DNA of 32,000 bases from Candidatus Brocadia sp. (GCA_021650915.1 CP091279.1:1860001-1892000); one strand, 5' to 3'; shown: positions 2,320 through 32,000, numbered from the stretch's first letter. The notes: generated from the letters alone by a model not told the origin. Translations and numbers: made by a program.

Positions 2320-2954
2320 TAATTTCAACAACTCCTTGTTCTCTCGCTTATAAAACCCCTTGTCAAAACTTATGCACTCTATCGCATCTCCTCCAAATCG
2401 ATTCAACAACCTCTCTGCCAGCGAAATCGACACCGACACCTCCGCCTGCCTCTCGACAACCTGATGCTCTACGAAAAAACCTCATTGACGCTTGCCACCA
2501 GAATGTTATGCCCCAATTCCACCCGTTTGTTTGCCTTTCCCTTGTGCAGCCACTCCGTATGCGGCTCAAATAACGAATATACCTTCTCTTCCACCGGTAT
2601 CTGCTCACCTCTGACCACCATTCTCTCCACAAGCTCAATGTGCCTTTTCAACATCCGATGAAAATACTCGAGTCTATCGAGTTTTACTCCACATACTGCC
2701 GCCTGATTTATTGCGAGCATCCTCCCGTAGATCGCCAACATGCGCTCATCTATCTTTTCACTCAAGCACCTTGCCAATCCAAGATACCGTTTTACCTGAT
2801 CCTTCGCTGCCTCTTCGTTCAATTCCTGGGTGACGTAGATATGTTGCAATGCCCTCAATATCGGAGGTAGCTCATCCCTGCTTTTTAATGGTAGTTTTAC
2901 TTCTGAAATGGATATGACTCTCAGCTTCCTCTGCTGCTCAAATCGCTTTCTCAT
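2317..2954 (-). pseudogene. ISNCY-type transposase remnant (N-terminus fused to a C-proximal part, frameshifted, 3' end replaced)
   Basis: ORF 2469-2954: 'MRKRFEQQRKLRVISISEVKLPLKSRDELPPILRALQHIY..EYFHRMLKRHIELVERMVVRGEQIPVEEKVYSLFEPHTEWLHKGKANKRVELGHNILVAS'. A shifted frame then reads 'FFVEHQVVERQAEVSVSISLAERLLNRFGGDAIECISFDKGFYKRENKELLKLY'. This parallels the copy at 30747-31508. About 200 aa of the middle are missing. Confidence 0.75.
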
Positions 2955-3583
2955 CTTTTCACTAATATCCTTTGCCTTTTTTGTTTATGCCTCGAATACG
3001 AGGACTCTTCCACCTAAGAATCCCTTCATTTTCTCCCTATTTTACCCTTTTACCCGTAAGATATTTAACGACTTCCATGAATGCTTTTCACCTGCTTAGC
3101 CTTATTTTACAGAGCTTTGGTCTGTTTCCGTTCAAACACCAACTACGAGAAAGACGTACGGCTTAAAAAGTTGCGTTGCTTATTGCTCTGTGCTTCTGGC
3201 GACGATTGGGGGCTGGAGGCGATTCGTCTCCTTCCTGCCAGCTAATGTCGCTGAGTGTAGCGTTCGGCTAGAAAGTAATTTTTGCCTTTGATTCCAGGTA
3301 TTTTGGATGCTCAGAATGCAGCAGAGAAGAATGGTATGTCTCCATCCCGGTTTTTGTTGCTCAGAATGGTTTGGGCCTGGCTATTTCCCAGGCCTTTTCG
3401 CCTACAATGCCACCGGGTAACTCCGCAAACCGCCAGATATTGAAGTTTATTACTGATTTTTGTATAGCAAAGGTATTATGAAAGGCCGATTTTCGCTACG
3501 TGAAAATCATTTGCAGAATTTAGGTAATAAAAGGGCTTGACAAACCAGTCCACTTCTCAGAGCAACATCTTCGCTAACAAAAT

Positions 3584-8032: not shown

Positions 8033-9904
8033 CTAAAAATGTTTACTCCACCACCAAGACCATACAAAAATCAGCCACAATACCCTACTATTATCAAATT
8101 TTTCAGTTAAATGTTCTTTATATATAATATCAATAGGCTTAATATTTAAACCGCCTTTATTATGAGCGGTAGTAATTATGTCCCAAAACATATCTTTATA
8201 CTCGTTTCTAAACCATTCTCCTATGGGAATGTTAAAACCTTGTTTTCGTCGAATAAGAATTTTTTTGGGCAATAAATCACTGCATACCTCTAATAAAATT
8301 GCCTTTTTTTTACCATTTCTTAGTTTGAAATTCCCTGGCATCGAATTAACTAATTCTATAATCCTAAAATCTAAAAATGGGGAGCGAACTTCTAAACTAT
8401 TTTGCATACTTGCAAAATCTATCTTGGGAAGCATGTCACCCTCGAGGAGAATCGACTGATCTGTGTGCAGGATCTTATTTAATATGTCGTCTTCTTGTAC
8501 TTCTTGAAAAAGCTTTTCAATATCCGACCTGATAATATTTGTTGACACCTGTGTGATATTATTAATAACGTCATTCAAATTGGCACCGGTACTTAAACTC
8601 ATCCATTTCAAGTGTCTAAATACCGGATTTGTCTCAATTCCTGATAAGAAGCGTTTTATCCTACGATTATACTGCGTAAACGGGTTACGATAAGATGCAG
8701 GTAGGATATTTGACAAGTTTTTCAGAAAGGGATGTGCTATTTTTACCCACCATTTCTTCATGTAATACTCGCCCAAATATTTGCTATATCCTGCAAAAAC
8801 CTCGTCAGCTCCATCGCCAGAAAGCGCAACGGTAACATATTTTTTTACTTCTTTACACATAATATACGTTGGAATATAGGCTGCGTCAGCGAAAGGCTCG
8901 TCTAGGGAATCTAAGATATTCGGCAAAAAACTTTTTACTTTCTCAGGAGTAACCATGATTTCAGTATGATCTGTTTTGAATCTCCTTGATATAAGGCGAG
9001 CATATTTTGAGTCATCATTATAATTTACAAAATCATTGTATGCGACAGTAAAGGTTTTAACACTTCTCTTAGAAAACTGACTCATAAGCCCTACTACTAT
9101 TGAAGAATCGATTCCACCACTCAAGAATGCCCCCACAGGAACATCCGATAACAAGCGAATTTTTACCGCATCTTCGAGTTCTCTTCTAAGCAATAGCTTA
9201 CCAGTTTTCCAATCTTTAATTTTTTCAACCATTTGGTTCGGCTCATACCATTTTCTTAATTCACTTTTTCCATTTTTCCATTTTAAAAAATATCCACCGG
9301 GAAGTTTACAAATATTTTTCCAAATAGTACGAGGGGCATAATTATATCCGATTGTAAAATATACACTCACACTATCAAGATCTATGGTTTGATTTGAATA
9401 TAATTTCTTAATAGCCTTAATTTCTGAAGAAAAAACAACACCTCCCTTTGTTTCTTCATAAAATAAGGGTTTCACTCCAAATCTGTCTCTTGCTAAAACT
9501 AATTCCTTTGTCTGGCAATCATACCATGCTATGGCAAACATCCCATTAAATTTATTCAAAGCCTTTTCACCCCAATGTATCAAGGCTGCCAAAACCACTT
9601 CAGTGTCTCCAGAAGATTTAAAATGAATACCCTTTTTTGATAGCTCTTCCCGTAGTTCTAAAAAATTGTATACTTCTCCATTGTAGACCAATATGTGTCC
9701 TTTGTTTTCAGATAACATCGGTTGATGAGCCATTTCTGATAAGTCTATTATCGATAAACGTGTATGCCCAAAAATAGCATCTTTATCTCTCCATATCCCA
9801 CTATCATCAGGGCCTCTGTGTCTTATTGAATCTAATGCATTTAGAATATGATTATCTTCTATACTGTTGGCTATTGAACCGACTATTCCTAATATCCCGC
9901 ACAT
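8033..9904 (-). CDS. Asparagine synthase (glutamine-hydrolysing) family amidotransferase, EPS-locus type
   Basis: 623 aa. 'MCGILGIVG' is the N-terminal Cys nucleophile of class II GATase. 'VPVGAFLSGGIDSS' is the PP-loop SGGxDS motif. Confidence 0.9.
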   Translation of the reverse strand: MCGILGIVGSIANSIEDNHILNALDSIRHRGPDDSGIWRDKDAIFGHTRLSIIDLSEMAHQPMLSENKGHILVYNGEVYNFLELREELSKKGIHFKSSGDTEVVLAALIHWGEKALNKFNGMFAIAWYDCQTKELVLARDRFGVKPLFYEETKGGVVFSSEIKAIKKLYSNQTIDLDSVSVYFTIGYNYAPRTIWKNICKLPGGYFLKWKNGKSELRKWYEPNQMVEKIKDWKTGKLLLRRELEDAVKIRLLSDVPVGAFLSGGIDSSIVVGLMSQFSKRSVKTFTVAYNDFVNYNDDSKYARLISRRFKTDHTEIMVTPEKVKSFLPNILDSLDEPFADAAYIPTYIMCKEVKKYVTVALSGDGADEVFAGYSKYLGEYYMKKWWVKIAHPFLKNLSNILPASYRNPFTQYNRRIKRFLSGIETNPVFRHLKWMSLSTGANLNDVINNITQVSTNIIRSDIEKLFQEVQEDDILNKILHTDQSILLEGDMLPKIDFASMQNSLEVRSPFLDFRIIELVNSMPGNFKLRNGKKKAILLEVCSDLLPKKILIRRKQGFNIPIGEWFRNEYKDMFWDIITTAHNKGGLNIKPIDIIYKEHLTEKFDNSRVLWLIFVWSWWWSKHF

Positions 9905-10074: not shown

Positions 10075-10902
10075 CTAGTTAACCCTTCTCCATCCAGTCA
10101 ATGGACGCCCAAGCAGCTTTTCTACGTAAGCTATGTCTGGCTCAAATTCTTCAATCAAATTCCTTCTTATGTCAGGCTCTAATTTTGGGAGAACTCCCGA
10201 GGTGCTTGTATAGATTCGCTTCAAGCCGAGATTTTTAAAAAAATTAACGGGACTGTGTAGACGTCTGCCCCGCAGAAAATTTGCCATACTATTGCAAAAC
10301 CGAGACAATGATGGGAATACTGTATACGAAGCAATATTTACATGTTCCTCTGCCAAAACCGGCAAGGGTACATCATCAATTCCAATAAAATTGTATACCT
10401 GTTTCAATACTTGCCCGGGAAAAGCTGCAATATCGTCTTGCAAAATAATAAGAACATGTTCTTTCCCAAATATCTCCAACCATCTGCCCAAGTGCATGCG
10501 ATAGCGGCTGGATTCGATAATCCTTGGCATATGCATAATGGCTTCATGAAACTCACATCTTAATTCACCGTATAATTTATAATGTAAATATAAAGAAAAG
10601 CTGCGAGATGCTGGATCTCGAAGAGTAATAATGATGCGGCAGTTTTGATTATGTCGATAAAGCCTTGCTGCTGCTTCTGGTACATCAAAATAAGTAGGAC
10701 CTATCTCAGCGCAAAATTGACTATTCATACAATATCGAAAGTGTGTCCAATACCACGACCAACCTTTATCGAATCGTTCGTCAAAGAAAAAAGTTTCTTT
10801 TGTACCTTGTGGAAAGCAGAGTTGTGGATGTTCTCGCAAGCACCTATCAAGCCACGTTGTGCCTGTTTTTTGTGGCCCCACACCGACAACTTTTAGTTGC
10901 AT
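10075..10902 (-). CDS. Sulfotransferase (PAPS-dependent, Sulfotransfer_1-like)
   Basis: The track ORF runs to 11034, but its first 44 codons lie in a palindromic repeat. The likely start is ATG 10902 ('MQLKVVGVGPQKTGTTWL'). 5'-PSB loop 'PQKTGTT'; 3'-PB motif 'ITLRDPASRSFS'. Confidence 0.8.
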   Translation of the reverse strand: MQLKVVGVGPQKTGTTWLDRCLREHPQLCFPQGTKETFFFDERFDKGWSWYWTHFRYCMNSQFCAEIGPTYFDVPEAAARLYRHNQNCRIIITLRDPASRSFSLYLHYKLYGELRCEFHEAIMHMPRIIESSRYRMHLGRWLEIFGKEHVLIILQDDIAAFPGQVLKQVYNFIGIDDVPLPVLAEEHVNIASYTVFPSLSRFCNSMANFLRGRRLHSPVNFFKNLGLKRIYTSTSGVLPKLEPDIRRNLIEEFEPDIAYVEKLLGRPLTGWRRVN

Positions 10903-10921
10903 AAAAACATCCTCATTATTT

Positions 10922-11074
10922 TGTAACACTTTAGTTTTTTGAAAAATTACCATAATAACGATGTTGCCGCACGGTGTAGGGGCGAAGCATTTGCCATAAA
11001 TTGGCATACATGGATTCACACCCCAAGCAGGCAAATGCTTCGCCCCTACCTTTTCAAAAAACTAAAGTGTTACA
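10922..11074. repeat. 153-bp nested palindromic (MITE/REP-like) element in the GT2-sulfotransferase spacer
   Basis: Outer arms 10922-10945 (tgtaacactttagttttttgaaaa) and 11051-11074 are a perfect 24-bp inverted repeat. Inner arms 10976-10995 (gtaggggcgaagcatttgcc) and 11030-11049 are a perfect 20-bp inverted repeat with a 34-nt loop. Confidence 0.85.
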
Positions 11075-12034: not shown

Positions 12035-13385
12035 GAGACCTGAGAAAAGTCCTCCAATGTATAGTTGTCACGCATCAAAGCCGTTGTAGTAATAGGCAAG
12101 CCGAATTTTGGTAACGTTCAGCGCCCCGGCAACACTCCATTTGCTCACATTCACCCGCAGGTTAACCGTACGCATGACGCGCTCTACTTTACTTGTCGTT
12201 CTGCCATTGAGCCTCTTTTCTATCGCCGTAAACATATCAGGCCTGGCATTCTCAAGATAGGATGCGGTATGAGTATATCCCTTCGACAAACAATGCTGAA
12301 TCACCGCATCCAATCGTTTCCTCTTGGACTCTATCATTTTCTCGATGGTCTTCTGACAATCAACCAATGGCCGTATCGCACAGACCTCCATAAGCTCCGA
12401 CATCACCTCCAGCCATTCTTTCCCCTTGCTCTTGACCCCATCTTGCCACAATACATACTTTGCCTGATACGGAATATGCCACAAACATCTCTGTACAAGC
12501 ACCTTGATCTTACCTTTCAAACTATCCAAAATAGAGGTGTCTCCATCGGTTATCAAAAGAAACTGGGAAAACTTCCTGAACACCTTAACACTCTTACCAA
12601 ACAGCGTATCCCAACTACCGTTGTAATCCCCTATGTCAAGCCCTGCCACTCTCACCCCTCCACCTCTTATATTGCACAAAGACCTTGAGCTCCTTGCCTC
12701 GTTTTGCTATCCCCTTAATCCCTACCCCTGTCCCGTCTGCTTCTCCCAGGGGAAGTCCCTTCTCGTCGAGTTGAAAATCTATCTCTGCTGCCGTCTTTTG
12801 TACCGATTTCCATATCGTCATCTTGTCTACTGTCCAGCCAAACATCGACACGATCTTCTTCGCTACCCGGTAGGTCGTTAACGATCCTACCAGCCCAAGC
12901 TTCCGATACGTCTCCGGTGGTATTCGCTTCATCCGCTCCATCCCCAGAAGCTTTCGCGTTATATACATCTTATGACCGCACCTCTTGCACTGCACCTGCA
13001 ACTGCTCTAATCTCAACCACTGAAAGACCGTCAGTATCTTCGTCTCTTTTCCATGCCTCGTCTTCCAGATAAACTCCTTGTCATTCCCACATTCGTCGCA
13101 GCAAAATGGCTTCCGTGATTGCGCCATCGCACTCTCACCAAAACCAACCACGATCTTCTGAATAAAATCCCTTAATATCTCCGGCAGTATCTTGCAAAAT
13201 GCCTTGAGAATCGACTCCAGGCTGCCGTCCTTTAATTCAACCCGAATTTGACAACCAAATTCTATTGTGATACCATCTGTGCATGGGGTTGCTCCCATAT
13301 AGCCCTCCTTTTCTTTATGGTTTAGTTTCTTGTATCAAAACTATTTTTTACCATATTTGGAGGGCTTTTTCTTTAACCAAGTCTC
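12035..13385 (-). mobile_element. IS element with imperfect ~30-bp terminal IRs; zinc-finger plus DDE transposase of ISLre2/ISKra4/UPF0236-like architecture (family tentative)
   Basis: The left end 12035- (gagacctgagaaaagtcctccaatgtat) aligns with the reverse complement of the right end 13385- (gagacttggttaaagaaaaagccctccaaatat), with one 4-5 nt indel. The transposase has an AGGAGGG RBS at about 13303-13310. Confidence 0.6.
12068..13298 (-). pseudogene. Transposase split into two overlapping ORFs (12636-13298 and 12068-12679) by a +1 frame change with no slippery run
   Basis: ORF1 contains 'CDECGNDKEF..CKRCGH' (CxxC..CxxC) and 'GEADGTGVGIKG'. ORF2 contains 'LLITDGDTSILD' and 'VQRCLWHIPYQAKY'. 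The join reads ..KVFVQY / NIRGGGVRVAGLDIGDY.. . Confidence 0.65.
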
Positions 13386-16771: not shown

Positions 16772-17803
16772 TCATTTCTCTCTTAGTACATTATTAGCCT
16801 CAATTTTTTTATGAGGTGCCCAAATTCTCCGTGTAAATTTCAATAAAGTACTCCGAAGAATTAAATTTACCCAACTATGAAGTAGCGCTAAATAACGACG
16901 ATACCTAGGTGGGGGTGGCATGAAATCAAATTCCAGATCATACCCATATGTCATCAGCGTGTTCCACATATACAATTCTAACGCTTTCCGCTGATCCTGT
17001 TTTAAAGTCTTCTTATATCCACCAACTGAATCAGAAAAAATTGGCTTTGCCACATTACCGTGATGCTTTATATTAGAGGCCGTTTGTGCATCTGAACTAG
17101 CATAATATTGCAACATCGATTCTTCATAATTTATTTTTAAATAATTACAAATTGTTAAGAGAGTCTTTTTTGGATCAGAGACTAAATCTTCATATCGAAC
17201 GGTCATAACCCTATCAGGTCCAAAATACCTTTCTGCAAGCATTCCATTTAATACACACTCATTCCATTCCAGAGAGATATCAGCAAGATTCGTTCCTCCC
17301 AATTTCGCCCTTAGCGCTGAAACTGCCACATCACGCCCATCACGTACTATATTTATGAACTTAGATATAGGGAATAGTTTTCCAAGGAATATGATAGAAT
17401 TCACATAGAGCGGAGTTTTGTCGCCCCATATCTCAACGGTGCTTTTCGTGTTAAAATAGGCATTAATATTCATAACTATATCTTGAAATGTCCGTTTCTT
17501 TAATCTTTTTATTATCACTTCAGCAGATGGTAATTTTTCCCATCCATGCACTCTTCGCTTTAAATATTTGTTTATTTCATGTAACAATGTAAATAAATTG
17601 CTATCTATTGAAAGATCACCGAATGCATTCAATTGTGCACCAAAGATTGGTATATATCCTGTTTCTCCCCCTATGTATATCTTAGAATGTGCGTTTAAAA
17701 TAAGACGTAAAAGCGACGTACCTGAGCGATAGCACCCCACAACAAAAAGAGGTGCATTACAATCAAGTGCATTTACCCTATTATCAGATTCCATGGTTTC
17801 CAT
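16772..17803 (-). CDS. Sulfotransferase (Sulfotransfer_3/Stf0-like), paralogue A
   Basis: 343 aa. 5'-PSB loop 'VVGCYRSGTSLLRLIL'; 3'-PB 'NIVRDGRDVAVS'. Confidence 0.8.
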   Translation of the reverse strand: METMESDNRVNALDCNAPLFVVGCYRSGTSLLRLILNAHSKIYIGGETGYIPIFGAQLNAFGDLSIDSNLFTLLHEINKYLKRRVHGWEKLPSAEVIIKRLKKRTFQDIVMNINAYFNTKSTVEIWGDKTPLYVNSIIFLGKLFPISKFINIVRDGRDVAVSALRAKLGGTNLADISLEWNECVLNGMLAERYFGPDRVMTVRYEDLVSDPKKTLLTICNYLKINYEESMLQYYASSDAQTASNIKHHGNVAKPIFSDSVGGYKKTLKQDQRKALELYMWNTLMTYGYDLEFDFMPPPPRYRRYLALLHSWVNLILRSTLLKFTRRIWAPHKKIEANNVLREK

Positions 17804-17897: not shown

Positions 17898-18944
17898 TCA
17901 CTTAGCAACTCTTTTACGAAAGAACCAAGATCTACGTACCAATTTCTTTGGAGCACCCCGAAGCAATAACTTTACACAACTATGAAATAGCGATAAATAG
18001 CGATAATGTTTAGGTGGAGGCGGCAGGAAGTCAAACTCTAAATCGTACCCATATGTCTTCAGCGTGTTCCACATATACAACTCTAATGTTTTACGCTGAT
18101 CTTGTTTTAAAACTTTCTTATATCCACCAACTGAATCTGATGAAATTGGTTTTATAACATTACTATGATGTTTTACCTTGGAAAGTGCTTGTGCATCTGA
18201 AGTTGCATAATATTGGGTCATTGATTCTTCGTAATTAATGTTTAAAAAATCACAAATCATTAGTAAAACTGTTTTTGGATCAGAGGCTAAATCTTCGTAT
18301 CGAATGGTTTTAACCCTTTTGGGTCCGAAATACTTCTCTGCAAGCATCCCATTTAATATACACTCATTCCATTCCAGAGAGATATCAGTAAGATTCGTTC
18401 CACCCAATTTCGCCCTCAACGTTGAAACAGCTACGTCACGCCCGTCACGTACCATATTTATGAATTTAGACCTAGGGAATAGCTTTCCAATGAACAGTAT
18501 GGAATTCACATAGAGCGGGGTTTTATCGCCCCATATTTCAATGGTACTTTTCGTATTAAAATATGTATTAACATGCATAACTATGTCTTGAAATGTCCGT
18601 TTCTTTAACCTTTTTACTACTTCTTCGATGACCGGTAGTCTTTTCCACCCATATACAATTCGTTCTAACTGTTTATTTATATCCTGTATCAAAGTAAATA
18701 AATTGTTATCTTCTGAAAGATCACCATACTTATGTAAGTTTGCACCAATGATTGGTATATATCTCGTTTCTTCCGGAATACATATTTTAGAGTGTGTGTT
18801 TAAAATGAGGCGCATAAGCGTAGTACCAGAGCGAGAGCACCCGACAATAAACAGGGGCGCATCCCTGTCAAGCGTATTTATCATAGCACTGTATCTTTCA
18901 TGTTCGAATAAACCTATCCAAGTAAATGGTCCAGACTTGACCAT
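17898..18944 (-). CDS. Sulfotransferase (Sulfotransfer_3/Stf0-like), paralogue B
   Basis: 348 aa. 'IVGCSRSGTTLMRLIL' and 'NMVRDGRDVAVS'. Collinear with paralogue A and identical at most positions by eye. The alternative ATG at 18884 ('MINTLDRDAPLF') would remove the overlap with the upstream gene. Confidence 0.8.
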   Translation of the reverse strand: MVKSGPFTWIGLFEHERYSAMINTLDRDAPLFIVGCSRSGTTLMRLILNTHSKICIPEETRYIPIIGANLHKYGDLSEDNNLFTLIQDINKQLERIVYGWKRLPVIEEVVKRLKKRTFQDIVMHVNTYFNTKSTIEIWGDKTPLYVNSILFIGKLFPRSKFINMVRDGRDVAVSTLRAKLGGTNLTDISLEWNECILNGMLAEKYFGPKRVKTIRYEDLASDPKTVLLMICDFLNINYEESMTQYYATSDAQALSKVKHHSNVIKPISSDSVGGYKKVLKQDQRKTLELYMWNTLKTYGYDLEFDFLPPPPKHYRYLSLFHSCVKLLLRGAPKKLVRRSWFFRKRVAK

Positions 18945-19885
18945 TCGTTCGTTACGATTCTTTTAAAGTAAAAACTGTCTTGCTTCACATGATTGTATCC
19001 GCGAATATTCAGTAAACAGGATTGAAATCCTGTTTTTTTAAAATGGTCGATCAATCCATACGCACAATCGTTATGACCACCAAAAGGAAATGCAAAATGG
19101 ACACAGGGTTTCCCAATCTGGTTTTCAATAATCGATTTACTCCGGTCTATTTCTTGCTTCGCTTCTTCAAGAGGCAATCTTGACAAAGAGCGATGAGTGA
19201 CACCGTGAGCGCCGATTTCCATACCGCACACACTCATTCGCTTTGCCTGTTCCCAAGAAATACCACAATCTTGTCTGATATCTGTTAATTTATTTGTTGA
19301 ATGCTTTCTCAAAAACCCTGTGACTTCCTGTATTTTATCAACGGTTATTGATTTCATACTATCAATGACACGTACGGCAAAAGATAATCTCGGTTCATGC
19401 ATTCTTTGTTCAAGTAATTTATTCTCTATTTCAATGCTATGAGTATCGGTACAGTCCCTCATCACTAGGGTGAAAACTTCCCAATCCCACACAGGTTCAT
19501 TCTTGCCAACATAATCTGTAGTCAGAAAAAATGTGGCGGGCAATCCCCTTTCTCTTAAAATGGGAAACGCCACCTCATAATTATCCCAATATCCATCATC
19601 AAATGTTAGTACAACTTGAACCTTTGCTTTTGCCTGTCCTGTGTGACATTGGTTTATTGCATCGGTTAATGAAATTATCGGATACCTTTTCCTTAATATA
19701 TCGATCTGTCTAATAAACGTTTTTTCGGTTATCACGGTATTCCTAGAATTAAATCGTACTTCTGGCAGCACACGATGATATAACAAAATTAAAAGTTTGT
19801 TTTTTTGATCAGTAAGTTTATTTTTCCAGTGGTTTACTCTATAAATAAGATTTTTTGCTGTAGTTTTTATCAAAATACTTTCCAC
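18914..19885 (-). CDS. Polysaccharide deacetylase (NodB homology domain)
   Basis: 323 aa, GTG start. 'VVLTFDDGYWDNYEVAFPILRERGLPATFFL', 'MEIGAHGVTHRSL', 'HFAFPFGG'. Confidence 0.85.
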   Translation of the reverse strand: MESILIKTTAKNLIYRVNHWKNKLTDQKNKLLILLYHRVLPEVRFNSRNTVITEKTFIRQIDILRKRYPIISLTDAINQCHTGQAKAKVQVVLTFDDGYWDNYEVAFPILRERGLPATFFLTTDYVGKNEPVWDWEVFTLVMRDCTDTHSIEIENKLLEQRMHEPRLSFAVRVIDSMKSITVDKIQEVTGFLRKHSTNKLTDIRQDCGISWEQAKRMSVCGMEIGAHGVTHRSLSRLPLEEAKQEIDRSKSIIENQIGKPCVHFAFPFGGHNDCAYGLIDHFKKTGFQSCLLNIRGYNHVKQDSFYFKRIVTNEWSSLDHLLG

Positions 19886-25357: not shown

Positions 25358-27949
25358 TCATTTTCGCTTATAATAAAAATAATAATCAGGTACTATCTTT
25401 GCCTGATTCAGGATAGCTCCAATTATATTTGTTTTGGCTTCTTTCATGCATTCTGTAACCCTATTGATACGATCAATGGACACCTGGCCTGATTTTATCA
25501 CGAATATTACACCGTCAACCAAAGAAAGCAAAGGTGTTACATTATTCAACGTATCCAGTAATGGTGGGGCATCTACAAGTATGACATCATACCTCTGTTT
25601 CAAAATATCTAAAAACTTTGCAAAAAGTGCAAAATAAAGCGGCCCATCTGGTGTTGTACGTCCTATCCCGGCAGGCAAAAGGGATAAATTTGGTTCATTC
25701 ACTGGCTTTATATAGGAAAAGACTTCATTTTCTAATAAGCGGCTCCCAGACATACGACTCAAACGACTGATAATTGGCGTGTAATCCTCTTCAAAGTAAA
25801 TCCTTTTATCTTCATATCTTTCTATTCTGCCCGGTTCAAAAGTAAAAGTTCCCTGTTTCCAGCTAAATAATTTCTGAAGACGCTCCTCTATTTGCAGTTT
25901 TAAAGGACCTTGCAGTTGCTCTTGATTAATGTATCCGGCATTGATGAGGATGTAACCTAATGGTTGTCCCGTTCGCTGGTTTCGCTCTAAAGCATCTTTG
26001 AGCTGATCTTCTGTAATAAAACCGCCACGCAAAAGCATATTACCTAATCCATTTGAAACTGGATTATCCTGACTTTGAATGTGGAAGAAACGACCATTCA
26101 CGAAGGCGGCAGTCATGGTTTGCGTGTCATTTCTGATAGTAAGCTGTCCGCTTTGTTTTTTAAGGGCTATAAGGGAAAAAAGATCATCAACACTGTATTT
26201 GCTTAATGTCCCCTGTCGTATTTCATGAGACATAACGCCCTTCATTGCATTAACCAAGCCACTCTCCTTGCCATTTTTTACTGCAAACAAATGGTGTAAA
26301 GTTGGTCGATCGAGGTCAGCATCTACCATAAGTACGCGCAATCCGCCACATGCTAAACTAATGGCTGATTTTGCCAAGACGGTAGTTTTTCCCTCACCAG
26401 CAGCTGTACTTTCTACCAGAAGTACCTGTCCAGATGTTCCAAGTTGCATTAAAGGCAATTTTGAAATGAATCCACCAGAGATAGCATATTGATTATAACC
26501 TTCCCGACGTTTATTTTGATTGTTATGAGACTCGCCCGCTGATAAAGCAAGCGACTTGTTTCCCTTCAAAGATTTATCATACGGCAGTATACCAAGCACT
26601 GACAATCCTAACCGTCTCATGATATCTTCTGGAGTCCTTATCGTCTTGTCCATATATTCAAGGAAAAAACAAAGCCCTATACCAAACGTCGAACCCAGTA
26701 GAGCAGACAAAAAAATATTTAAAAATATTTTTGGTTTAGCTGGAGAAAGCGGCACCTCAGCCTCGTCCACAATACGGATATTATTCCTCTCCATGTTCCC
26801 AGTAAGATTAATCTCTTTTGCATGTTTAAGAAGAATATCATATATTTCCTGATCACCTTCCGCCTCTAATTTCAACATGTCATAATTGATAGCTTTTTCA
26901 CCATGGGAAACTATCGGTCTCTGCGTATCCCGAATTTGCTGTGTAGACTTTTCAAGAGCTACAATCCGATCCAGTTCTGCCTTAAGAGTCTTTCTTATTG
27001 CCTCTACCTCATTGATAATATCCTGCTCCAATTGTTTAATACTGGAATTAATTTCGATCATTTTCGGATGCTTGGGACCGTACTTGGTAGCAAATTCCGA
27101 TCTCCGTGTCTTGAGTTCACTCAATTTGCTATAGAGCCCTTGAATGACGGTACTTCCCGAGATTTCTGGCAAGGAAAACAGATTTTTGTCATCAATAGAA
27201 AATGCCCTGAGTATCTCGTATTTGTATTCATAAACCTCTCGTTGAGATGTTCCTACTTTTGTTTTCTGATCCCTAATTTGTGTTTTAAGCCATTCTATTG
27301 CTTGCTGAGAGAATAAATGCTGCATTTGCATATTTTTAGCAATAAACGCATGGGCATGTGCGTTAGCAACGCGCGCAGCGATTTCAGGCGATTGGCTTAT
27401 GAAGTTAATATTGACGAGATTAGTCCCTGAAATGGGGATAATCATAAGATTCGACAAATACCAGTCAACAATCCAGGCTGGGTACGGTGGAACAAATTTT
27501 TCTGAAGCCTCTTGAGGAATATTTGATATGCCAATCTCTGATGAAGCGGAAGGTTTGACAGATGTGTTAGAAGATACAGCCAAATTGTCTGAATTTTGAG
27601 TTTCAGAAATGCCTAGTTCTCTCCAGAGTTTTAACTCTTGAATGACGTCTTTTGCGAGATTTCTGCTCATTAGTAAATTATATTGTGTTTGATAATAATC
27701 CTGATCAATGGTATTTGTCGCCATTACATCTGCCATTTCATTTATAAAGGAAGATTGTCTTTCAATAATGATCTGTGTGGCGGCTTTATAGAGAGGGGTT
27801 GTAGAAAATGAGACGATAGTTACGGCACATACTACAATGAAAAGGAAGATAATGGCTACCCATTTACGCTTTCTTATGATGTCGATATAATCGGTTAGAT
27901 GCGCTTGCTGTGGAAATAATTTTTGGTTTGATGGAAGCTCAAGATTCAT
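25358..27949 (-). CDS. Fused polysaccharide co-polymerase (Wzz/GNVR) and bacterial tyrosine autokinase carrying an inserted DUF4388/T2SSE_N-like module
   Basis: 863 aa. TM1 is aa ~30-50, followed by a periplasmic coiled-coil region. 'NNIRIVDEAEVPLSPAKP' is followed by TM2 at aa ~408-430. Walker A is AAGEGKT (516-522), Walker A' VLMVDADLDRP (539-549), Walker B YDVILVDAPP (787-796). The C-terminal Tyr cluster is DYYFYYKRK. Confidence 0.85.
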   Translation of the reverse strand: MNLELPSNQKLFPQQAHLTDYIDIIRKRKWVAIIFLFIVVCAVTIVSFSTTPLYKAATQIIIERQSSFINEMADVMATNTIDQDYYQTQYNLLMSRNLAKDVIQELKLWRELGISETQNSDNLAVSSNTSVKPSASSEIGISNIPQEASEKFVPPYPAWIVDWYLSNLMIIPISGTNLVNINFISQSPEIAARVANAHAHAFIAKNMQMQHLFSQQAIEWLKTQIRDQKTKVGTSQREVYEYKYEILRAFSIDDKNLFSLPEISGSTVIQGLYSKLSELKTRRSEFATKYGPKHPKMIEINSSIKQLEQDIINEVEAIRKTLKAELDRIVALEKSTQQIRDTQRPIVSHGEKAINYDMLKLEAEGDQEIYDILLKHAKEINLTGNMERNNIRIVDEAEVPLSPAKPKIFLNIFLSALLGSTFGIGLCFFLEYMDKTIRTPEDIMRRLGLSVLGILPYDKSLKGNKSLALSAGESHNNQNKRREGYNQYAISGGFISKLPLMQLGTSGQVLLVESTAAGEGKTTVLAKSAISLACGGLRVLMVDADLDRPTLHHLFAVKNGKESGLVNAMKGVMSHEIRQGTLSKYSVDDLFSLIALKKQSGQLTIRNDTQTMTAAFVNGRFFHIQSQDNPVSNGLGNMLLRGGFITEDQLKDALERNQRTGQPLGYILINAGYINQEQLQGPLKLQIEERLQKLFSWKQGTFTFEPGRIERYEDKRIYFEEDYTPIISRLSRMSGSRLLENEVFSYIKPVNEPNLSLLPAGIGRTTPDGPLYFALFAKFLDILKQRYDVILVDAPPLLDTLNNVTPLLSLVDGVIFVIKSGQVSIDRINRVTECMKEAKTNIIGAILNQAKIVPDYYFYYKRK

Positions 27950-27982: not shown

Positions 27983-28573
27983 TTAGAAATACCGTCCTGG
28001 CACCCGAATAATGTCGTCGGGCATTACAATATCGTCCATTTTCGCCTTGAACTCCTTTTCTACGCCATCTTTTTTGCGGACAATAATCGCGCGCTTAGGA
28101 GAGGCGCGCTCAGTCTGTCCACCTGCCATAGAAATCGCTTGCCTTACCGTCAATTCTCTTTCCCATTTATGCTCACCTGGGTTTATTACTTCCCCAGTCA
28201 CAAATATTCTTTGTTTCTTATATTCTTTTAAGCTAACCTTCACTTGAGGTGCAATCAAATAACCATCAGCCAATTTTTTCTCAATAATGTTTTCAAGCTC
28301 AAATATCGAAAGACCGCTTGCATGAACCTTTTCAATAAAAGGAAAACTGAAATCTCCTTGCTGTGAAACTTCAACAGTACAGTTTAAGTCATCATTATCC
28401 CACACTTTTATATCTAAAACATCCCCTACATTTATAATGTATTCATCCTCAAGGTTTGCTGCGCACAGCGTCAAAGACGATACAAGAAACATGCTTATGA
28501 GAAAAGGAGTTATAAACGCTACTCTCCTGCTTAATGCATTACCCATATAATATCTGATTTTTTTAAAAATCAC
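27983..28573 (-). CDS. Wza/EpsE-like outer-membrane polysaccharide export protein (Poly_export + SLBB)
   Basis: 196 aa. 'YIINVGDVLDIKVWDNDDLNCTVEVSQQGDFSFPFIEKVHASGLSIFELENIIEKKL' followed by 'RIFVTGEVINPG'. An N-terminal signal sequence is present. The track start is GTG 28573; ATG 28546 is an alternative. Confidence 0.85.
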   Translation of the reverse strand: MIFKKIRYYMGNALSRRVAFITPFLISMFLVSSLTLCAANLEDEYIINVGDVLDIKVWDNDDLNCTVEVSQQGDFSFPFIEKVHASGLSIFELENIIEKKLADGYLIAPQVKVSLKEYKKQRIFVTGEVINPGEHKWERELTVRQAISMAGGQTERASPKRAIIVRKKDGVEKEFKAKMDDIVMPDDIIRVPGRYF

Positions 28574-29134: not shown

Positions 29135-30115
29135 TCATTGACCTCTCTGAAACAATACCGTTGATATCGTTTTTAAAACAATAAGGATATCAAAAAAGAT
29201 GGATTGATTTTGAATATAATATAGGTCGTACTCAAGCTTCTCAACCTGACCTTCTTCAGTACCGAAATAACCTCCTTGCACCTGTGCCCAACCGGTAAGT
29301 CCTGGTTTAATAAGAAAACGAAGTCGATAATGTGGAATATCCTTGGCTAATTTTTCAGCAAAATACTTGCGTATGGGACGTGTCCCAATAAAACTCATTT
29401 CTCCTTTTAGAACATTAAATAATTGAGGTAGCTCGTCAAATCTTATTTTACGCAATAATTTACCAATTTTTGTAATTCTCGGATCATTTTTGTCGGCCCA
29501 TGTTGGGCCAGTAACTTTTTCTGCATCGTTGATCATCGTACGGAATTTTAGCAAAGTAAATGGCCGCTCATGCAGCCCCAGACGTTCTTGTTTAAAAAAA
29601 ACCGGACCTTTTGATGACACCTTAATAACTAAGGCTATAAGCAGCACAAATGGCAATGACGCAATTATTCCAACTAACGATAAAAAGATATCCATACATC
29701 TTTTTGCAATTTTGTATAACGGGGGATTAAATTTTTCCCCCTGATTACGAAATAAAAACCACTCATCCTTAGCATAATGTATGGGCGCCTTCTCTGTAAG
29801 TGCTTCATAAAAATAAAGGGAATCATAAATGGTAACATTAGCAAATTTTATTTCCAATAACTGTTTTCTTAGTACAGGAAAATTCTCGAGCCTATGCGAA
29901 ACAACTACCGTACCAAACTTGTTTTCTCGGATTATGCTGAGAAGACTTTTCAACGACTCTGAACCATCAATACAAACTGTTCCAGATTTCTCTGAATAAT
30001 TTTTCATTACCGACAAGTCATAAGTTTTTAAATACTTACGGTCTCTAAGTAGAGACTCGATCTCATTTATTAGGGAATCATTACCCAGAAGAAGAACCTT
30101 TTGCTTCGTAAACAT
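29135..30115 (-). CDS. Initiating polyprenyl-phosphate glycosyl-1-phosphate transferase (bacterial sugar transferase family)
   Basis: 326 aa. 'KRCMDIFLSLVGIIASLPFVLLIALVIKVSSKGPVFFKQERLGLHERPFTLLKFRTM' and 'DELPQLFNVLKGEMSFIGTRP'. First gene of the co-directional array. Confidence 0.9.
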   Translation of the reverse strand: MFTKQKVLLLGNDSLINEIESLLRDRKYLKTYDLSVMKNYSEKSGTVCIDGSESLKSLLSIIRENKFGTVVVSHRLENFPVLRKQLLEIKFANVTIYDSLYFYEALTEKAPIHYAKDEWFLFRNQGEKFNPPLYKIAKRCMDIFLSLVGIIASLPFVLLIALVIKVSSKGPVFFKQERLGLHERPFTLLKFRTMINDAEKVTGPTWADKNDPRITKIGKLLRKIRFDELPQLFNVLKGEMSFIGTRPIRKYFAEKLAKDIPHYRLRFLIKPGLTGWAQVQGGYFGTEEGQVEKLEYDLYYIQNQSIFFDILIVLKTISTVLFQRGQ

Positions 30116-30543: not shown

Positions 30544-32000
30544 TAGTGTCTGAACGAAAACGCACTTTTTGTAAAAGTGCGAGGTCGATTTTCTATTTAC
30601 CAATAGATAATTTTAAGATTTGAGATTAGGGTTTTTGGCAAAAATACTGTTCTTTTACATATTTCCCTTGTTTTCCCCTTTATTTTAGCCTTGTCTGGGC
30701 GTACCTGCCTCCCGGCAGACTGTTTTTCTTCGTGTTTTTTGCTTGCTTAGGCGGCTTTTCGCAACTTTTCGCACTGCTTCCGTGCCTTCTCCTGCAGCAC
30801 GTTTCCCAGCTTGTGCAAATTCGCAGCTAACACGCCCATTGCACAATATCTTTTAAAGGCATGCAGCCCTTTGTCCGGACACCTATCCAAGCCGTGATGC
30901 TCCAAACGATTGATATCCGATTCTACCGCCGAGTGCTTGTGCCTTAGCTTCTTAAATGTCTTACCCGATTCCTCTTCCTGTTCCGCCTTATTCTTCTTGC
31001 CCTTCTTGGGAAGGATTACCTCTGGTATATACAAACTCAGCAACTCTTTATTCTCTTTCTTGTAAAAACCTTTATCAAAACTTATACTCTTTATTGTGCC
31101 TTCTCCGTAACGGCTCAACAACCTATCTGCCAATGGAATTACCAACGATACATCCGCCTGTTTTTCTCCTACCACATGGTCCACGATGAAACCCCACTGA
31201 TCGCTTGCTACCAGAATATTATGTCCCAACTCTACCCTTTTGTTTGACTTGCCTTTGTACAGCCACTCCGTATGCGGCTCAAACAACGAATGAACCTTTT
31301 CTGCCGCCGGTATTACCTCATCCCGGATCACCCTTCTCTCCACCAGGTCTATCTGTTTATTCAACATCCCGTGAAAATACTCCAGTGTCCCTATTTTCCC
31401 TGCATGCTTGTCTACCTGGTTCGTCGTTAGCACCTTTTCGTAGATGGCTAACAGACTCGCTCCTATCTTTTCACTCAAACCCCTCGATAATTCCAAGTAA
31501 CTCCTCACATGCTCTTCCTTGTTTTTCCCCCCCGCTGCTTGACGCCTTTGCGCTTATCCTCATCAGCTTTTTTAACTCTCTCCTCCAATATTTGCTCTTG
31601 CGCCATCCTTTCCCCGCCAGGATGCCTTCCTCTATTGCATCCTCTATCATGTCCAGACTCTTGCGTCCCGCATCCCACAATAAATTCATATCGGCGGAAA
31701 GTGTACATTCGTCTCTAACACATACGTATCCACCTTAATACACAGTCCTTCGTCCTTTTTTTTAACCAACTGATGCCCCGATGATATCACCACTTCATTT
31801 ATCTGCCTGAGGGTCTCCTCATCCAACAATCTTATATTGTCCTTGATGCTCTGCATCGAAAAAACCTTCGCCTCTCCAAATGCCGTCTCAACCCCCATTA
31901 TCTGCCTGATAAGTTTGTGATGGTTGGCAAAATCCTCCAACCTGTCATAATCGGCATCTAACCCTAATCTTACCACCGACAACACCAAAATATGCCATAA
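30544..32000 (-). mobile_element. ISNCY-type insertion sequence, copy 2 (runs off the right edge)
   Basis: The end 'tagtgtctgaacgaaaac' at 30544 matches the 2051 end of copy 1. Segment 30546-30704 is homologous to 2053-2210. The orientation is the same as copy 1. Confidence 0.75.
30747..32000 (-). pseudogene. ISNCY-type transposase broken by two frameshifts, 5' partial
   Basis: There are three consecutive frames. Frame 1, to 31686: 'LWHILVLSVVRLGLDADYDRLEDFANHHKLIRQIMGVE..DTYVLETNVHFP'. Frame 2, 31471-31689: 'NLLWDAGRKSLDMIEDAIEEGILAGKGWRKSKYWRRELKKL'. Frame 3, 30747-31508: 'EYFHGMLNKQIDLVERRVIRDEVIPAAEKVHSLFEPHTEWLYKGKSNKRVELGHNILVASDQWGFIVDH..SFDKGFYKKENKELL..LRHKHSAVESDINRLEHHGLDRCPDKG'. 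Confidence 0.8.

Follow-up and report, generated by a model that had tools for sequence, protein, structure and literature searches.

What does a tandem repeat that resembles a c-di-GMP-binding module do inside the kinase domain of a polysaccharide co-polymerase? The question is raised by a gene of Candidatus Brocadia fulgida in which a sequence-only reading had recognized a 24+5+24-residue repeat of MshEN/T2SSE_N type with the leading arginine of both motifs replaced, and had left a divergent second-messenger receptor and a ligand-blind fold as its two possible identities. We analysed the gene within a window of 32,000 nucleotides from Candidatus Brocadia sp. (GCA_021650915.1, CP091279.1:1860001-1892000). 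Positions are counted from the first letter of this window, and every feature given below lies on the minus strand.

The gene occupies positions 25358..27949 (-) and encodes a protein of 863 amino acids (NCBI record KKO20123.1, Ca. Brocadia fulgida) that matches the Pfam Wzz, GNVR and P-loop families and the NCBIfam models eps_transp_fam, EpsF and eps_fam. A Wzz (chain length determinant) domain spans aa 18-106 (27632..27898; PF02706, E 1.1e-9), and a GNVR domain spans aa 359-429 (26663..26875; PF13807, E 3.4e-14), ahead of the second of two hydrophobic segments (approximately aa 30-49 and 408-435 by hydropathy) that are predicted to span the membrane. This is the PCP-2a layout, in which an N-terminal Wzz-type periplasmic domain between two membrane segments is fused to a kinase. 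The N-terminal half of the BY-kinase P-loop domain, aa 505-566 (26252..26437), matches Pfam ParA, CbiA and AAA_31, aligns to residues 84-138 of the CapB chain, and carries Walker A (AAGEGKTT, aa 516-523, 26381-26404) and a DxD-type Walker A' (LMVDADLDR, aa 540-548, 26306-26332). The C-terminal half, aa 751-863 (25361..25699), aligns to CapB chain residues 156-266, tyrosine cluster included, and carries Walker B (VILVDAPP, aa 789-796, 25562-25585) and a C-terminal tyrosine cluster (YYFYY, aa 856-860, 25370-25384); the NCBIfam model TIGR01007 matches this half at aa 747-860. A model of the kinase matches the folds of CapAB, Wzc, VpsO, BceF and Etk in Foldseek searches. The protein is a Wzc-like BY-kinase of the PCP-2a type, with putative tyrosine autophosphorylation.

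The kinase gene lies inside a Wzx/Wzy polysaccharide cluster, with OPX, phosphoglycosyl transferase, Wzx and Wzy genes as neighbours. Immediately upstream is a gene for a short, Wza-like OPX outer-membrane polysaccharide export protein of 196 aa (27983..28573 (-); Pfam Poly_export and SLBB), and OPX proteins are the functional partner class of PCP-2a proteins. The head of this same-strand cluster is formed by a gene for the initiating sugar-phosphate transferase (Bac_transf, 29135..30115 (-); PF02397, E 1e-66). The window contains no gene for a Wzb or PHP phosphatase, and a crude motif scan revealed no GGDEF, EAL or HD-GYP genes in the window or beside 37 related loci, a finding that weighs against a c-di-GMP input to the kinase.

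The repeat had been placed inside an insert in the kinase, and a two-piece alignment of S. aureus CapB (CapA1B1), which flanks aa 566-750, bears this out. The protein shares with Wzc, Etk, VpsO, BceF and CapAB (PCP-2a and PCP-2b) its Wzz/GNVR region, two hydrophobic segments, Walker A, A' and B motifs, tyrosine cluster, fold and gene neighbours, but it differs from them in possessing a module of approximately 170-185 residues (185 residues in this protein, 25700..26254) where CapB has 17. The insert is matched at aa 579-710 by the Pfam profile PF14332 (gathering score 25 bits): the E-value is 1.1e-22 when the full-length protein is searched and 1.5e-24 when the insert is taken alone, with scores of 80.7 to 86.8 bits, and the match extends over positions 1-98 of the 122 in the profile. 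Cut out by itself, the clip still matches positions 48-77, and the precomputed annotation of the insert is PatA_N. In the AlphaFold2 model of the insert (pLDDT 87.6), a PATAN beta-strand and helices come after the clip. The 53-residue repeat is therefore the alpha-clip of a PATAN (DUF4388/PatA_N) domain, an identity that the sequence-only reading overlooked, and this domain sits inside the kinase fold, with Walker A' before it and Walker B after it. As in cyanobacterial PATAN proteins of the PatA/PixG/PixE type, the Pfam match is above threshold and the beta-sheet/helix core is broken by two helical hairpins. However, known PATAN proteins are stand-alone or joined end-to-end with REC, HTH, TPR, Roadblock or ComFB domains, whereas here the domain is nested in the fold of another. 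The Han et al. preprint, which cites Makarova 2006, states that PATAN alpha-clip repeats recur at the N-termini of GspE/PilB ATPases. We found no paper tying DUF4388 to a tyrosine kinase in the literature searched, and a structure search with the AlphaFold2 insert model found no solved PATAN structure.

Reverse-strand translation of positions 25892-26050 yields GLGNMLLRGGFITEDQLKDALERN-QRTGQ-PLGYILINAGYINQEQLQGPLKLQ as aa 634-686 of the 863-aa open reading frame, and the exact 24/5/24 spacing that had been read is correct. Motif I (aa 634-657, 25979..26050) aligns to V. cholerae MshE R9-Q32, and motif II (aa 663-686, 25892..25963) aligns to MshE R38-Q61; the five-residue spacer QRTGQ between them (aa 658-662, 25964..25978) was delimited by translation and family alignment. 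The motif that had been given agrees with that of Wang et al. 2016 (PMC5013675), and the leucine, glycine and hydrophobic positions that had been said to match do so in both halves: Leu2-Gly3 (L635-G636 and L664-G665, invariant or nearly so in the family), the hydrophobic pairs, G10 (G643 and G672), and L17 and L21 (L650, L654, L679 and L683). Likewise, motif I begins with Gly634 and motif II with Pro663, in neither case Arg, and motif I ends in Asn (N657) rather than Gln, all as had been reported, while motif II ends in Q686. The G634 codon, in place of the family Arg, is GGA (26048-26050). Nor is G634 a sequencing error: contigs from NCBI and from independent Logan runs, at least 23 in all, carry the identical 863-aa protein, and SNGLG is retained in every allelic variant of its 90% cluster.

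The likeness of this repeat to MshEN holds at the level of the MshEN_N motif. The profile NF053729 ('c-di-GMP_motif, MshE-related', 53 positions; curated cutoff 38 bits) scores 54.2 bits on the whole protein (E 9e-15) and 60.1 bits on the excised piece (E 1e-16), and phmmer against PDB sequences aligns the repeat residue for residue to PilF (E 1.4e-11) and to MshEN 5HTL (E 5.9e-5). The alignment is gapless to MshE residues 5-61 (57 residues) and to all three PilF GSPII domains. The paired helical hairpins expected of an MshEN domain are predicted in the AlphaFold2 model, in which helices at aa 634-641, 647-660, 664-670 and 676-695 form a compact four-helix bundle that superposes on c-di-GMP-bound 5HTL_B, 8PDK and 9GL5 with rmsd values of 0.7-0.9 Å (Foldseek; 52 columns, 38% identity, probability 1.00). 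AlphaFold may just echo 5HTL-like geometry out of its training data. What does not hold is the assignment to a T2SSE_N domain: Pfam T2SSE_N (PF05157) has no match in the full protein, in the insert or in the clip at E-values as high as 10, and the T2SSE_N1 half is absent. Judged by the refuting conditions that had been set for the repeat, the outcome is thus mixed, with no hit from the Pfam profile but a hit from the dedicated NCBIfam model and predicted hairpins. A complete T2SSE_N domain is N-terminal on a GspE/PilB-type ATPase, whereas this repeat is internal in a BY-kinase.

A chance resemblance of an amphipathic helical repeat could be imagined, with the motif being degenerate (mostly hydrophobic residues and Gly) and Pfam T2SSE_N giving no match, but it is ruled out, to a negligible residual probability, by E-values of 1e-15 to 1e-16 for NF053729 and 1e-11 for PilF; the 57-residue MshE alignment is gapless at 38% identity, and the motif is conserved across phyla. 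Residues 634-686 are homologous to the MshEN_N c-di-GMP-binding module. However, NF053729 also gives the non-binding PilF GSPII-A fragment 52.7 bits, above the cutoff, and the match therefore shows homology, not function. Binding of c-di-GMP by aa 634-686 is putative and may, in Ca. Brocadia fulgida, be weakened.

The best explanation of these findings, and the one towards which we lean, is that the nested PATAN alpha-clip is a c-di-GMP receptor acting on the BY-kinase/co-polymerase. In MshEN, backbone amides at positions 2-3 bind phosphate and guanine N7/O6, L17 and L21 provide triangular guanine platforms, G10 makes a turn, and Gln24 forms hydrogen bonds with the 3'-OH of the ribose and with phosphate. 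Each of the six leucines that make up the two guanine platforms has its counterpart in the B. fulgida clip. One c-di-GMP would bridge both motifs as in MshEN, with each guanine on a three-leucine cluster (L635 with L679/L683, and L664 with L650/L654), hydrogen bonds to guanine from main-chain amides (G636/N637 and G665/Y666), and N657 and Q686 gripping the ribose-phosphate. Ordering of the clip by its ligand would shift the PATAN insert and, because the insert is attached right after Walker A' of a MinD/ParA-like fold, this movement may alter ATP handling and/or ring assembly. An altered autophosphorylation cycle would in turn change the gating of Wzx/Wzy-dependent (probably sulfated) polysaccharide polymerisation and export. 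Both the direction in which regulation would run and its coupling to Walker A' are purely inferred here.

A different ligand, such as 3',3'-cGAMP, c-di-AMP, pGpG or another dinucleotide, seems quite improbable. Gly and Pro as first residues and Asn at I-24 do alter the lid and the ribose-phosphate contacts, and a section heading of Wang 2016 has MshEN able to bind cGAMP too. Another heading of that paper describes MshEN as specific for c-di-GMP, however, and guanine is recognised in MshEN through the leucine platforms and the main-chain amides of positions 3 and 4, every one of which the clip keeps; moreover, no MshEN-type domain with a different primary ligand was found in the literature searched.

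The two first residues bear on whether c-di-GMP is the ligand. The B. fulgida clip shares with MshE MshEN_N (5HTL) and PilF GSPII-B/C (8PDK and others) the 24+5+24 arrangement, L2, G3, G10, L17 and L21 in both motifs, and the Gln that ends motif II, but it has Gly and Pro at position 1 where MshE has Arg and GSPII-B has Lys and Leu, and its motif I ends in Asn. The replacement of both leading arginines is real, yet its significance is smaller than had been supposed, because Pro is found family-wide and in validated binders and only G634 is unusual. The family keeps P663 almost without exception (44/48). PilF GSPII-C, which has P335 at motif II position 1, binds with an affinity about that of MshEN, and the high-affinity c-di-GMP binder NfrB has P489-L490-G491. 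The search pattern of Wang et al. 2016 (PMC5013675) takes [RKPN] as the first residue and [QN...] as residue 24; N657 lies within the relaxed pattern [QNKRYWST] and outside the strict motif, and relatives have Asn, Gln or, in many cases, His there. The extended consensus of the PilF GSPII-B paper is Arg/Lys/Leu at position 1, for stacking on guanine, and GSPII-B itself, with Lys and Leu at its two first positions, binds c-di-GMP at 6 nM. Neither G634 nor P663 fits the Arg of Wang 2016 or this extended consensus; Pro is admitted by Wang's relaxed pattern, and Gly is in no published pattern.

Among close relatives, position 634 is Arg in 39/44 and Leu in 4/44; in genome loci it is nearly all Arg, the two exceptions being Gln; and among more distant representatives R accounts for 52/65 and K for 9/65 of the residues at I-1, a position whose sole role in MshEN is guanine stacking (Wang 2016, PMC5013675). 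In these alignments only Ca. Brocadia fulgida has Gly at 634; its relatives keep Arg, Lys or Leu. The family may consist of receptors from which this lineage has departed, the R634G change (with N657) having made the B. fulgida kinase insensitive to c-di-GMP while the domain was kept structurally. G634 is unique among the 44 close relatives and approximately 36 genome loci and is fixed in every allele of the species cluster. R9 variants of MshE, which lack the stacking residue, bind less tightly, by a factor below five according to Wang, and in a GSPII-A construct that was already weakened, binding disappeared once the Arg at the corresponding place in motif II was reverted to Ser. We nevertheless consider such a loss unlikely. 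Single substitutions seldom abolish binding in MshE or NfrB, and a Gly introduced beside position 1 of GSPII-B (L166G) raised affinity, so that a Gly opening helix 1 may make the unwinding required for binding easier. G634 aside, there is no decay in the B. fulgida clip, whose remaining consensus differences are at variable positions. Because Gly at 634 removes the guanine-lidding side chain, the B. fulgida protein would most likely be a lower-affinity receptor, not a dead one.

Nested PATAN BY-kinases form a family of at least 89 clusters at 50% identity, with membrane-fused and stand-alone forms in anammox Planctomycetota, Desulfobacterota, and MAGs labelled Nitrospirae and Deferribacteres. 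The alpha-clip is the most conserved cytoplasmic segment of these proteins, with a mean commonest-residue frequency of 0.81 versus 0.60-0.66 in the PATAN core and in either half of the kinase, and its codons differ from those of B. sapporoensis by 31 synonymous and only 4 non-synonymous changes. Across 47 relatives, the ligand-contact positions are kept at G636 (44/44), G665 (48/48), L679 (47/48), Q686 (45/48) and R634 (39/44).

Conservation of this kind can also be read as that of a docking site, with PATAN and its alpha-clip serving only as a ligand-blind protein-protein surface for kinase-ring subunits, the polymerase/flippase machinery or a regulator. It is the whole clip that is conserved, not just the ligand-contact residues: conserved positions include RTGQ of the spacer (R659 in 45/48, T660 in 48/48) and surface residues without c-di-GMP contact in MshEN. 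Cyanobacterial PatA-type PATAN binds PilB1 and PilC with no nucleotide reported (Han et al. preprint), and PilF GSPII-A, a proposed 'landing pad' with the same fold and a near-consensus motif, binds no c-di-GMP. Even a perfect consensus is insufficient in GSPII-A, where binding was regained only after removing inter-subdomain contacts and the N-cap, and where a His33 to Gln change was required for the recovered binding. A further difference from Wzc, Etk, VpsO, BceF and CapAB is that, when the 75 residues preceding Walker A are inspected by eye rather than aligned on a structure, neither the kinase nor its orthologues show an ExxRxxR ring-interface motif; they share Y-D-[IV]-S-x-x-[LF]-[IV]-x-R-L-P there, and a different interface may therefore be required. 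A purely docking role is, in our estimation, possible but somewhat unlikely. Arg/Lys at I-1, Gly3 of both motifs and Gln at II-24 have ligand-only roles in MshEN and are kept across wide divergence, the full set of guanine-platform leucines is in place, and Pro at II-1 and Asn at I-24 are tolerated by validated binders or by Wang's relaxed pattern. No report of c-di-GMP binding by the nested-PATAN kinase family or by any PATAN alpha-clip was found in the literature searched.

A c-di-GMP receptor in this position would have partial precedents. Unlike MshE and PilF, the B. fulgida kinase lacks T2SSE_N1 (MshEN_C) and the T2SS/T4P ATPase, its clip lies inside a PATAN domain inside a BY-kinase, and its binding is putative. 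The closest parallel in domain content is EpsG of Methylobacillus sp. (TIGR03029), an MshEN_N-AAA_31 BY-kinase fusion already present in Suppl. Table 4 of Wang 2016 (PMC5013675), which likewise combines an MshEN_N-type motif with a BY-kinase P-loop in a polysaccharide cluster. However, the EpsG motif is N-terminal on a stand-alone cytoplasmic kinase with no PATAN core, whereas here it lies between Walker A' and B of a membrane-anchored PCP-2a protein. The N-terminus of TIGR03029 matches MshE; on the 863-aa protein the model scores 63.5 bits against an equivalog cutoff of 313.8, with only the C-terminal kinase half matched. The coupling of c-di-GMP to a BY-kinase is not a first, since it was proposed bioinformatically for EpsG, the only earlier proposal of direct c-di-GMP input to a BY-kinase; the nested PATAN setting is a new form of it. 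NfrB, the c-di-GMP-activated GT2 exopolysaccharide synthase of E. coli, also has an MshEN-type motif with Pro at one position 1 (P489), and this motif confers post-translational c-di-GMP control on polysaccharide production; NCBIfam NfrB models weakly match the clip. In NfrB a complete MshEN is found at the C-terminus of the glycosyltransferase of a synthase-dependent system, whereas here the system is Wzx/Wzy-dependent and the target is the co-polymerase/kinase.

The Wzx/Wzy-dependent pathway is not known to be under direct c-di-GMP control, unlike synthase-dependent systems. The location of the insert suggests that production of slime (surface polysaccharide) in an anammox bacterium may be under direct c-di-GMP control. 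We think it quite possible, while stopping just short of expecting it, that these proteins are a widespread, undescribed class of BY-kinases with a PATAN/alpha-clip c-di-GMP sensor beside Walker A', of which the B. fulgida protein would be a natural Arg-to-Gly affinity variant. If so, c-di-GMP would gate Wzx/Wzy-dependent polymerisation and export directly and post-translationally. According to a review (PMC13188143), c-di-GMP promotes aggregation in anammox bacteria, and the nested-clip kinase would then be the missing anammox receptor that links c-di-GMP to granule formation.

The 863-aa protein encoded at 25358-27949 on the minus strand is a Wzc-like PCP-2a co-polymerase and BY-kinase. Pfam assigns a Wzz domain to aa 18-106 and a GNVR domain to aa 359-429, hydropathy analysis reveals two hydrophobic segments at approximately aa 30-49 and 408-435, and the cytoplasmic P-loop domain carries Walker A (AAGEGKTT), Walker A' (VDADLDR), and Walker B (VILVDAPP) motifs as well as a C-terminal YYFYY cluster. 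An AlphaFold2 model of aa 500-863 (pLDDT 87.1, pTM 0.83) matches CapAB, Wzc, VpsO, BceF, and Etk in the PDB with E-values of approximately 1e-7. The sequence-only reading had placed a tandem repeat within an insert of the kinase, and this placement is borne out by S. aureus CapB, which aligns in two pieces (query 10-66 with chain 84-138, and query 252-361 with chain 156-266) on either side of aa 566-750, a stretch of 185 residues in the host kinase as compared to 17 at the same place in CapB. The insert is a PATAN domain (PF14332, DUF4388/PatA_N), recognized with an E-value of 1.1e-22 in the whole protein and 1.5e-24 when searched alone, and it is nested in an apparently intact BY-kinase. Inspection by eye reveals no canonical ExxRxxR motif, the ring-interface element located ahead of Walker A in Wzc and CapB, at aa 465-505 (window positions ~26440-26560) or in the corresponding region of loci L005-L039 of the PATAN-containing kinase family; in its place, the orthologues share Y-D-[IV]-S-x-x-[LF]-[IV]-x-R-L-P. 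Therefore, the subunit interface of this kinase family may differ.

Reverse translation of positions 25892-26050 on the minus strand yields GLGNMLLRGGFITEDQLKDALERN-QRTGQ-PLGYILINAGYINQEQLQGPLKLQ (residues 634-686), which recovers the 24/5/24 repeat exactly as it had been read. The motif to which the repeat had been compared appears in Wang et al. 2016 (PMC5013675), and L2, G3, the two hydrophobic pairs, G10, L17, and L21 fit it in both halves. The deviations that had been claimed are present as well: the two motifs open with G634 and P663, respectively, at position 1, and the first of them closes with N657 at position 24. A gapless alignment with residues 5-61 of V. cholerae MshE pairs R9 with G634, Q32 with N657, R38 with P663, and Q61 with Q686, and L10 and G11 are kept. 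Comparison with domain profiles, which the sequence-only reading had proposed as a check, gave a divided result. The Pfam T2SSE_N/MshEN profile, PF05157, matches neither the whole protein nor the 176-aa insert nor the 62-aa clip at E-values up to 10, and the repeat is therefore not classed as a T2SSE_N domain. PF05157 covers mainly the N1 subdomain, which the host protein does not have. The MshE-related part of the expectation stood: NF053729, a 53-position NCBIfam model named 'cyclic di-GMP-binding domain-containing protein, MshE-related' with a curated cutoff of 38, matches aa 635-681 of the whole protein at 54.2 bits (E 9.4e-15) and the excised clip at 60.1 bits. When the sequence of the insert was searched against all PDB chains, it retrieved all three GSPII domains of T. 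thermophilus PilF (E 1.4e-11) and V. cholerae MshEN (5HTL; E 5.9e-5). Judged by these sequence searches, the repeat is more than a chance resemblance to the MshEN motif.

The repeat is the 'alpha-clip' of the PATAN domain, an insertion made of two repeats of antiparallel helices that, according to a preprint by Han et al. citing Makarova 2006, is also present in the N-terminal regions of the ATPases that serve T2SS and type IV pili. In the predicted model of the insert (pLDDT 87.6), strands and a helix are followed by four helices (aa 634-641, 647-660, 664-670, and 676-695) and then by a strand and two helices. Foldseek superimposes the four clip helices of this model on c-di-GMP-bound MshEN (5HTL_B) and on PilF GSPII-B (8PDK/9GL5) over 52 columns with an rmsd of 0.7-0.9 Å, 38% identity, and a probability of 1.00; the E-values are weak (the best is 0.075, for 5HTL_B), which presumably reflects how few residues are aligned. 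These data establish both the homology of the clip and its predicted fold. The PATAN core of the predicted model has no reliable Foldseek match in the PDB, in which we found no solved PATAN structure, and matches of the insert to actin, EutJ, PilM, and topoisomerase were dismissed (probability ≤0.84, with an rmsd of approximately 10 Å for the actin type).

The two arginines missing from position 1 are different cases. Of 48 close relatives, 44 share the proline of P663, as do all genome loci, and among distant representatives the residue is Pro in 38, Arg in 23, and Lys in 9. Proline at position 1 is also present in experimentally validated c-di-GMP binders. In PilF, GSPII-C, a domain with three motifs, starts motif II with P335 and has an affinity about equal to that of MshEN. 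Motif II fully fits the relaxed search pattern of Wang et al. 2016 (PMC5013675), [RKPN]hGxxhhxx[GAS]hhxxxxhxxxhxx[QNKRYWST], and motif I fits it at every residue except the first, G634. At that position, close relatives have Arg (39/44) or Leu (4/44), distant representatives have Arg (52) or Lys (9), and genome loci outside Ca. Brocadia fulgida have Arg nearly throughout, with two Gln. Among the compared sequences, Gly begins motif I only in the Ca. Brocadia fulgida protein (KKO20123.1), where its GGA codon is one change from AGA or CGA. At least 23 contigs drawn from independent data sets encode the identical 863-aa protein, and the Gly is retained in the remaining alleles of the species cluster, which rules out sequencing error or chance as its source. 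Given this constancy and the prevalence of Arg among relatives, G634 is a fixed species-level substitution at the residue that would otherwise be most indicative of ligand binding.

Published work describes both tolerance and loss of binding upon changes to this motif. The side chain at position 1 of MshEN only stacks on guanine, and substitutions of MshE R9 shift the affinity less than fivefold (Wang et al. 2016, PMC5013675). In PilF GSPII-B, Lys and Leu replace both arginines and the affinity is 6 nM, which led to an extended consensus of (R/K/L)LG…. Binding requires the first helical turn to unwind, and the L166G variant of this domain, with Gly next to position 1, has a better affinity because that turn is looser. 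Single substitutions in NfrB reduce function only in part. Binding by a resurrected GSPII-A construct is abolished when its Arg39 is changed back to Ser, and the His at position 24 had to become Gln. Full-length GSPII-A given a perfect consensus does not regain binding because its N-cap and inter-subdomain contacts block the site. A fragment of this non-binder scores 52.7 bits against NF053729, near the scores of the clip from the window (60.1), Jettenia (55.9), and Desulfosarcina (58.2), with MshE itself at 86.6. Therefore, a match to NF053729 proves homology and not function.

The GSPII-A precedent favors the main rival explanation, in which the PATAN/clip module is a ligand-blind docking unit. 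PATAN domains are known to bind proteins, and the conserved surface residues of the clip include some that make no ligand contact in MshEN. Across 47 relatives, the clip is more conserved than the kinase halves or the PATAN core (mean frequency of the commonest residue 0.81 versus 0.60-0.66), and relative to the B. sapporoensis orthologue 31 of its 53 codons differ synonymously and only 4 non-synonymously. Comparison across the family shows strong purifying selection at the putative ligand-contact positions, as these are known in MshEN. We consider the docking explanation less likely and c-di-GMP binding by the family somewhat more probable than not; for the B. fulgida protein itself, physiologically relevant binding has at best an even chance.

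If the clip does bind c-di-GMP, a single molecule would be held as in MshEN, on two platforms of three leucines each and by backbone amide and Gln/Asn contacts. Binding would order the clip and shift the PATAN insert, which branches off the P-loop fold just behind Walker A'. This point corresponds to switch I of MinD/ParA/Get3-type NTPases, so movement of the insert would be expected to alter ATP handling and/or ring assembly, and hence the phosphorylation cycle that gates polymerization and export. By analogy with other c-di-GMP-controlled polysaccharides, high c-di-GMP would be expected to favor export.

The architecture is widespread. Word-indexed searching retrieved 47 clusters (90% identity) that share the P-loop and DUF4388 arrangement, and 37 loci with a PATAN-containing kinase emerged when one genome was scanned for each species. 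Their hosts include the anammox genera Ca. Jettenia, Brocadia, Kuenenia, Scalindua, Anammoxibacter, and Loosdrechtia, as well as Desulfosarcina variabilis, Desulfatitalea, Desulfosudis, other Desulfobacterota, and MAGs labelled Nitrospirae and Deferribacteres. When 1.84 billion representatives were searched exhaustively with a profile, both kinase halves were present in 122 of the 150 top matches, and 89 of these 122 have an insert longer than 120 residues (median 176). These relatives occur in a long form (~850-950 aa) and a short, stand-alone kinase form (~390-420 aa), and 58 of them score at least 25 bits against an alpha-clip model built from close relatives. Several genomes have two or three PATAN-kinase paralogues (L017, L021, and L025 in Ca. 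Scalindua SCAELEC01; L014/L019; L018/L026; L034/L036), with L021 and L025 lying approximately 27 kb apart on one contig. The profile search also retrieved two non-kinase proteins made of six tandem alpha-clip units (P0175 and P0183, 394-397 aa) and giant proteins of 1455-1492 aa with five matched stretches each (P0147, P0169, and P0213); Pfam confirmed five DUF4388 stretches in P0147.

The kinase gene belongs to a same-strand Wzx/Wzy-type polysaccharide cluster flanked on both sides by transposase genes (839-1864, DDE_3 with an HTH domain, and 30747-31508, DDE_Tnp_1, both on the minus strand). The cluster starts with a phosphoglycosyl transferase, a short OPX protein, and then the kinase. The OPX (Wza-like) protein (27983-28573, minus strand) has a Poly_export and one SLBB domain in 196 aa, and E. 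coli Wza is much larger; the protein is so short that a separate outer-membrane partner may be needed. Further genes encode three NAD-dependent dehydratase/epimerase-family proteins, a Wzx-type flippase, two hydrolases, GT2 and GT4 glycosyltransferases, a Wzy-like protein, and, adjoining the latter, a right-handed beta-helix protein of 636 aa (4738-6648, minus strand) whose weak match to the Chondroitinase B N-terminal domain is noted here; it may be a polysaccharide lyase or epimerase-like enzyme. Genes at 10075-11034, 16772-17803, and 17898-18944 (all minus strand) and at 18914-19885 and 8033-9904 encode three sulfotransferases, a polysaccharide deacetylase, and an AsnB-like glutamine amidotransferase, which suggest that the exopolysaccharide is sulfated and possibly amidated or N-deacetylated. 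Mirror-image ORFs of ~205 aa lie on opposite strands (12065-12688, plus; 12068-12679, minus) beside a 220-aa ORF (12636-13298, minus), and Pfam matches none of them.

Among the scanned ORFs of the 32-kb window, Pfam finds no GGDEF, EAL, or HD-GYP gene, and no tyrosine phosphatase of the Wzb (LMW-PTP) or PHP type is detected. A crude regular-expression scan of 41 loci found no GGDEF, EAL, or HD-GYP gene; since such expressions are insensitive, this absence near related loci is weak evidence. The same scan found no LMW-PTP next to related loci. A STAS-PilZ gene (PilZ E 1.2e-6, STAS E 1.1e-4) lies a few kb upstream of the PATAN-containing kinase in two loci, one from an uncultured Planctomycetota MAG (L023, ~2376-3130, plus strand) and the other from Ca. 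Scalindua SCAELEC01 (L025, ~826-1716, plus strand); its domains mark it as a potential second c-di-GMP receptor in the same neighborhood.

By sequence, the clip is homologous to MshEN_N, the c-di-GMP-binding unit of MshE, but position 1 in each half and position 24 in motif I depart from the strict motif, and the host protein lacks the N1 subdomain of a complete MshEN domain. The clip is therefore not classed as an MshEN domain; the insert belongs to PATAN/DUF4388, and the protein carrying it to the BY-kinase/PCP-2a class. That an MshEN_N motif might feed c-di-GMP into a BY-kinase is not a new idea: Wang et al. 2016 (PMC5013675) list 'MshEN_N - AAA_31' for Methylobacillus EpsG, and the EpsG family model starts with an MshEN_N-type motif. 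What is new is the way the domains are arranged: the kinase fold encloses an entire PATAN domain, clip included, and this arrangement is widespread in anammox and sulfate-reducing lineages. Our literature search found no description of a PATAN-in-kinase architecture, no paper joining DUF4388 with 'tyrosine', and nothing relevant for MshEN with 'tyrosine kinase' or for BY-kinase with c-di-GMP and MshEN/EpsG. Public records name the host protein 'DUF4388 domain-containing' or 'exopolysaccharide biosynthesis protein'.

Direct control by c-di-GMP is established for synthase-dependent polysaccharides, including cellulose (through the PilZ domain of BcsA), alginate, Pel, PGA, and NfrB. To our knowledge, it is absent from current models of BY-kinase-gated, Wzx/Wzy-dependent capsules and exopolysaccharides. 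A 2025 review mentions c-di-GMP only under the synthase-dependent pathway. There is also a practical side, as wastewater treatment makes use of this anammox bacterium. Its granulation relies on extracellular polymers, and a review that names no receptor ties that process to c-di-GMP (PMC13188143). The feature is real and directly testable. If the proposal is true, a function would have been proposed for a PATAN alpha-clip for the first time, and P-loop kinases would offer a case in which a regulatory domain sits nested beside Walker A'. A BY-kinase family with a built-in MshEN_N-type sensor would also make such control of the Wzx/Wzy pathway testable with a soluble domain of ~180 residues, and the family offers a natural control because B. 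fulgida has Gly where its orthologues have Arg.
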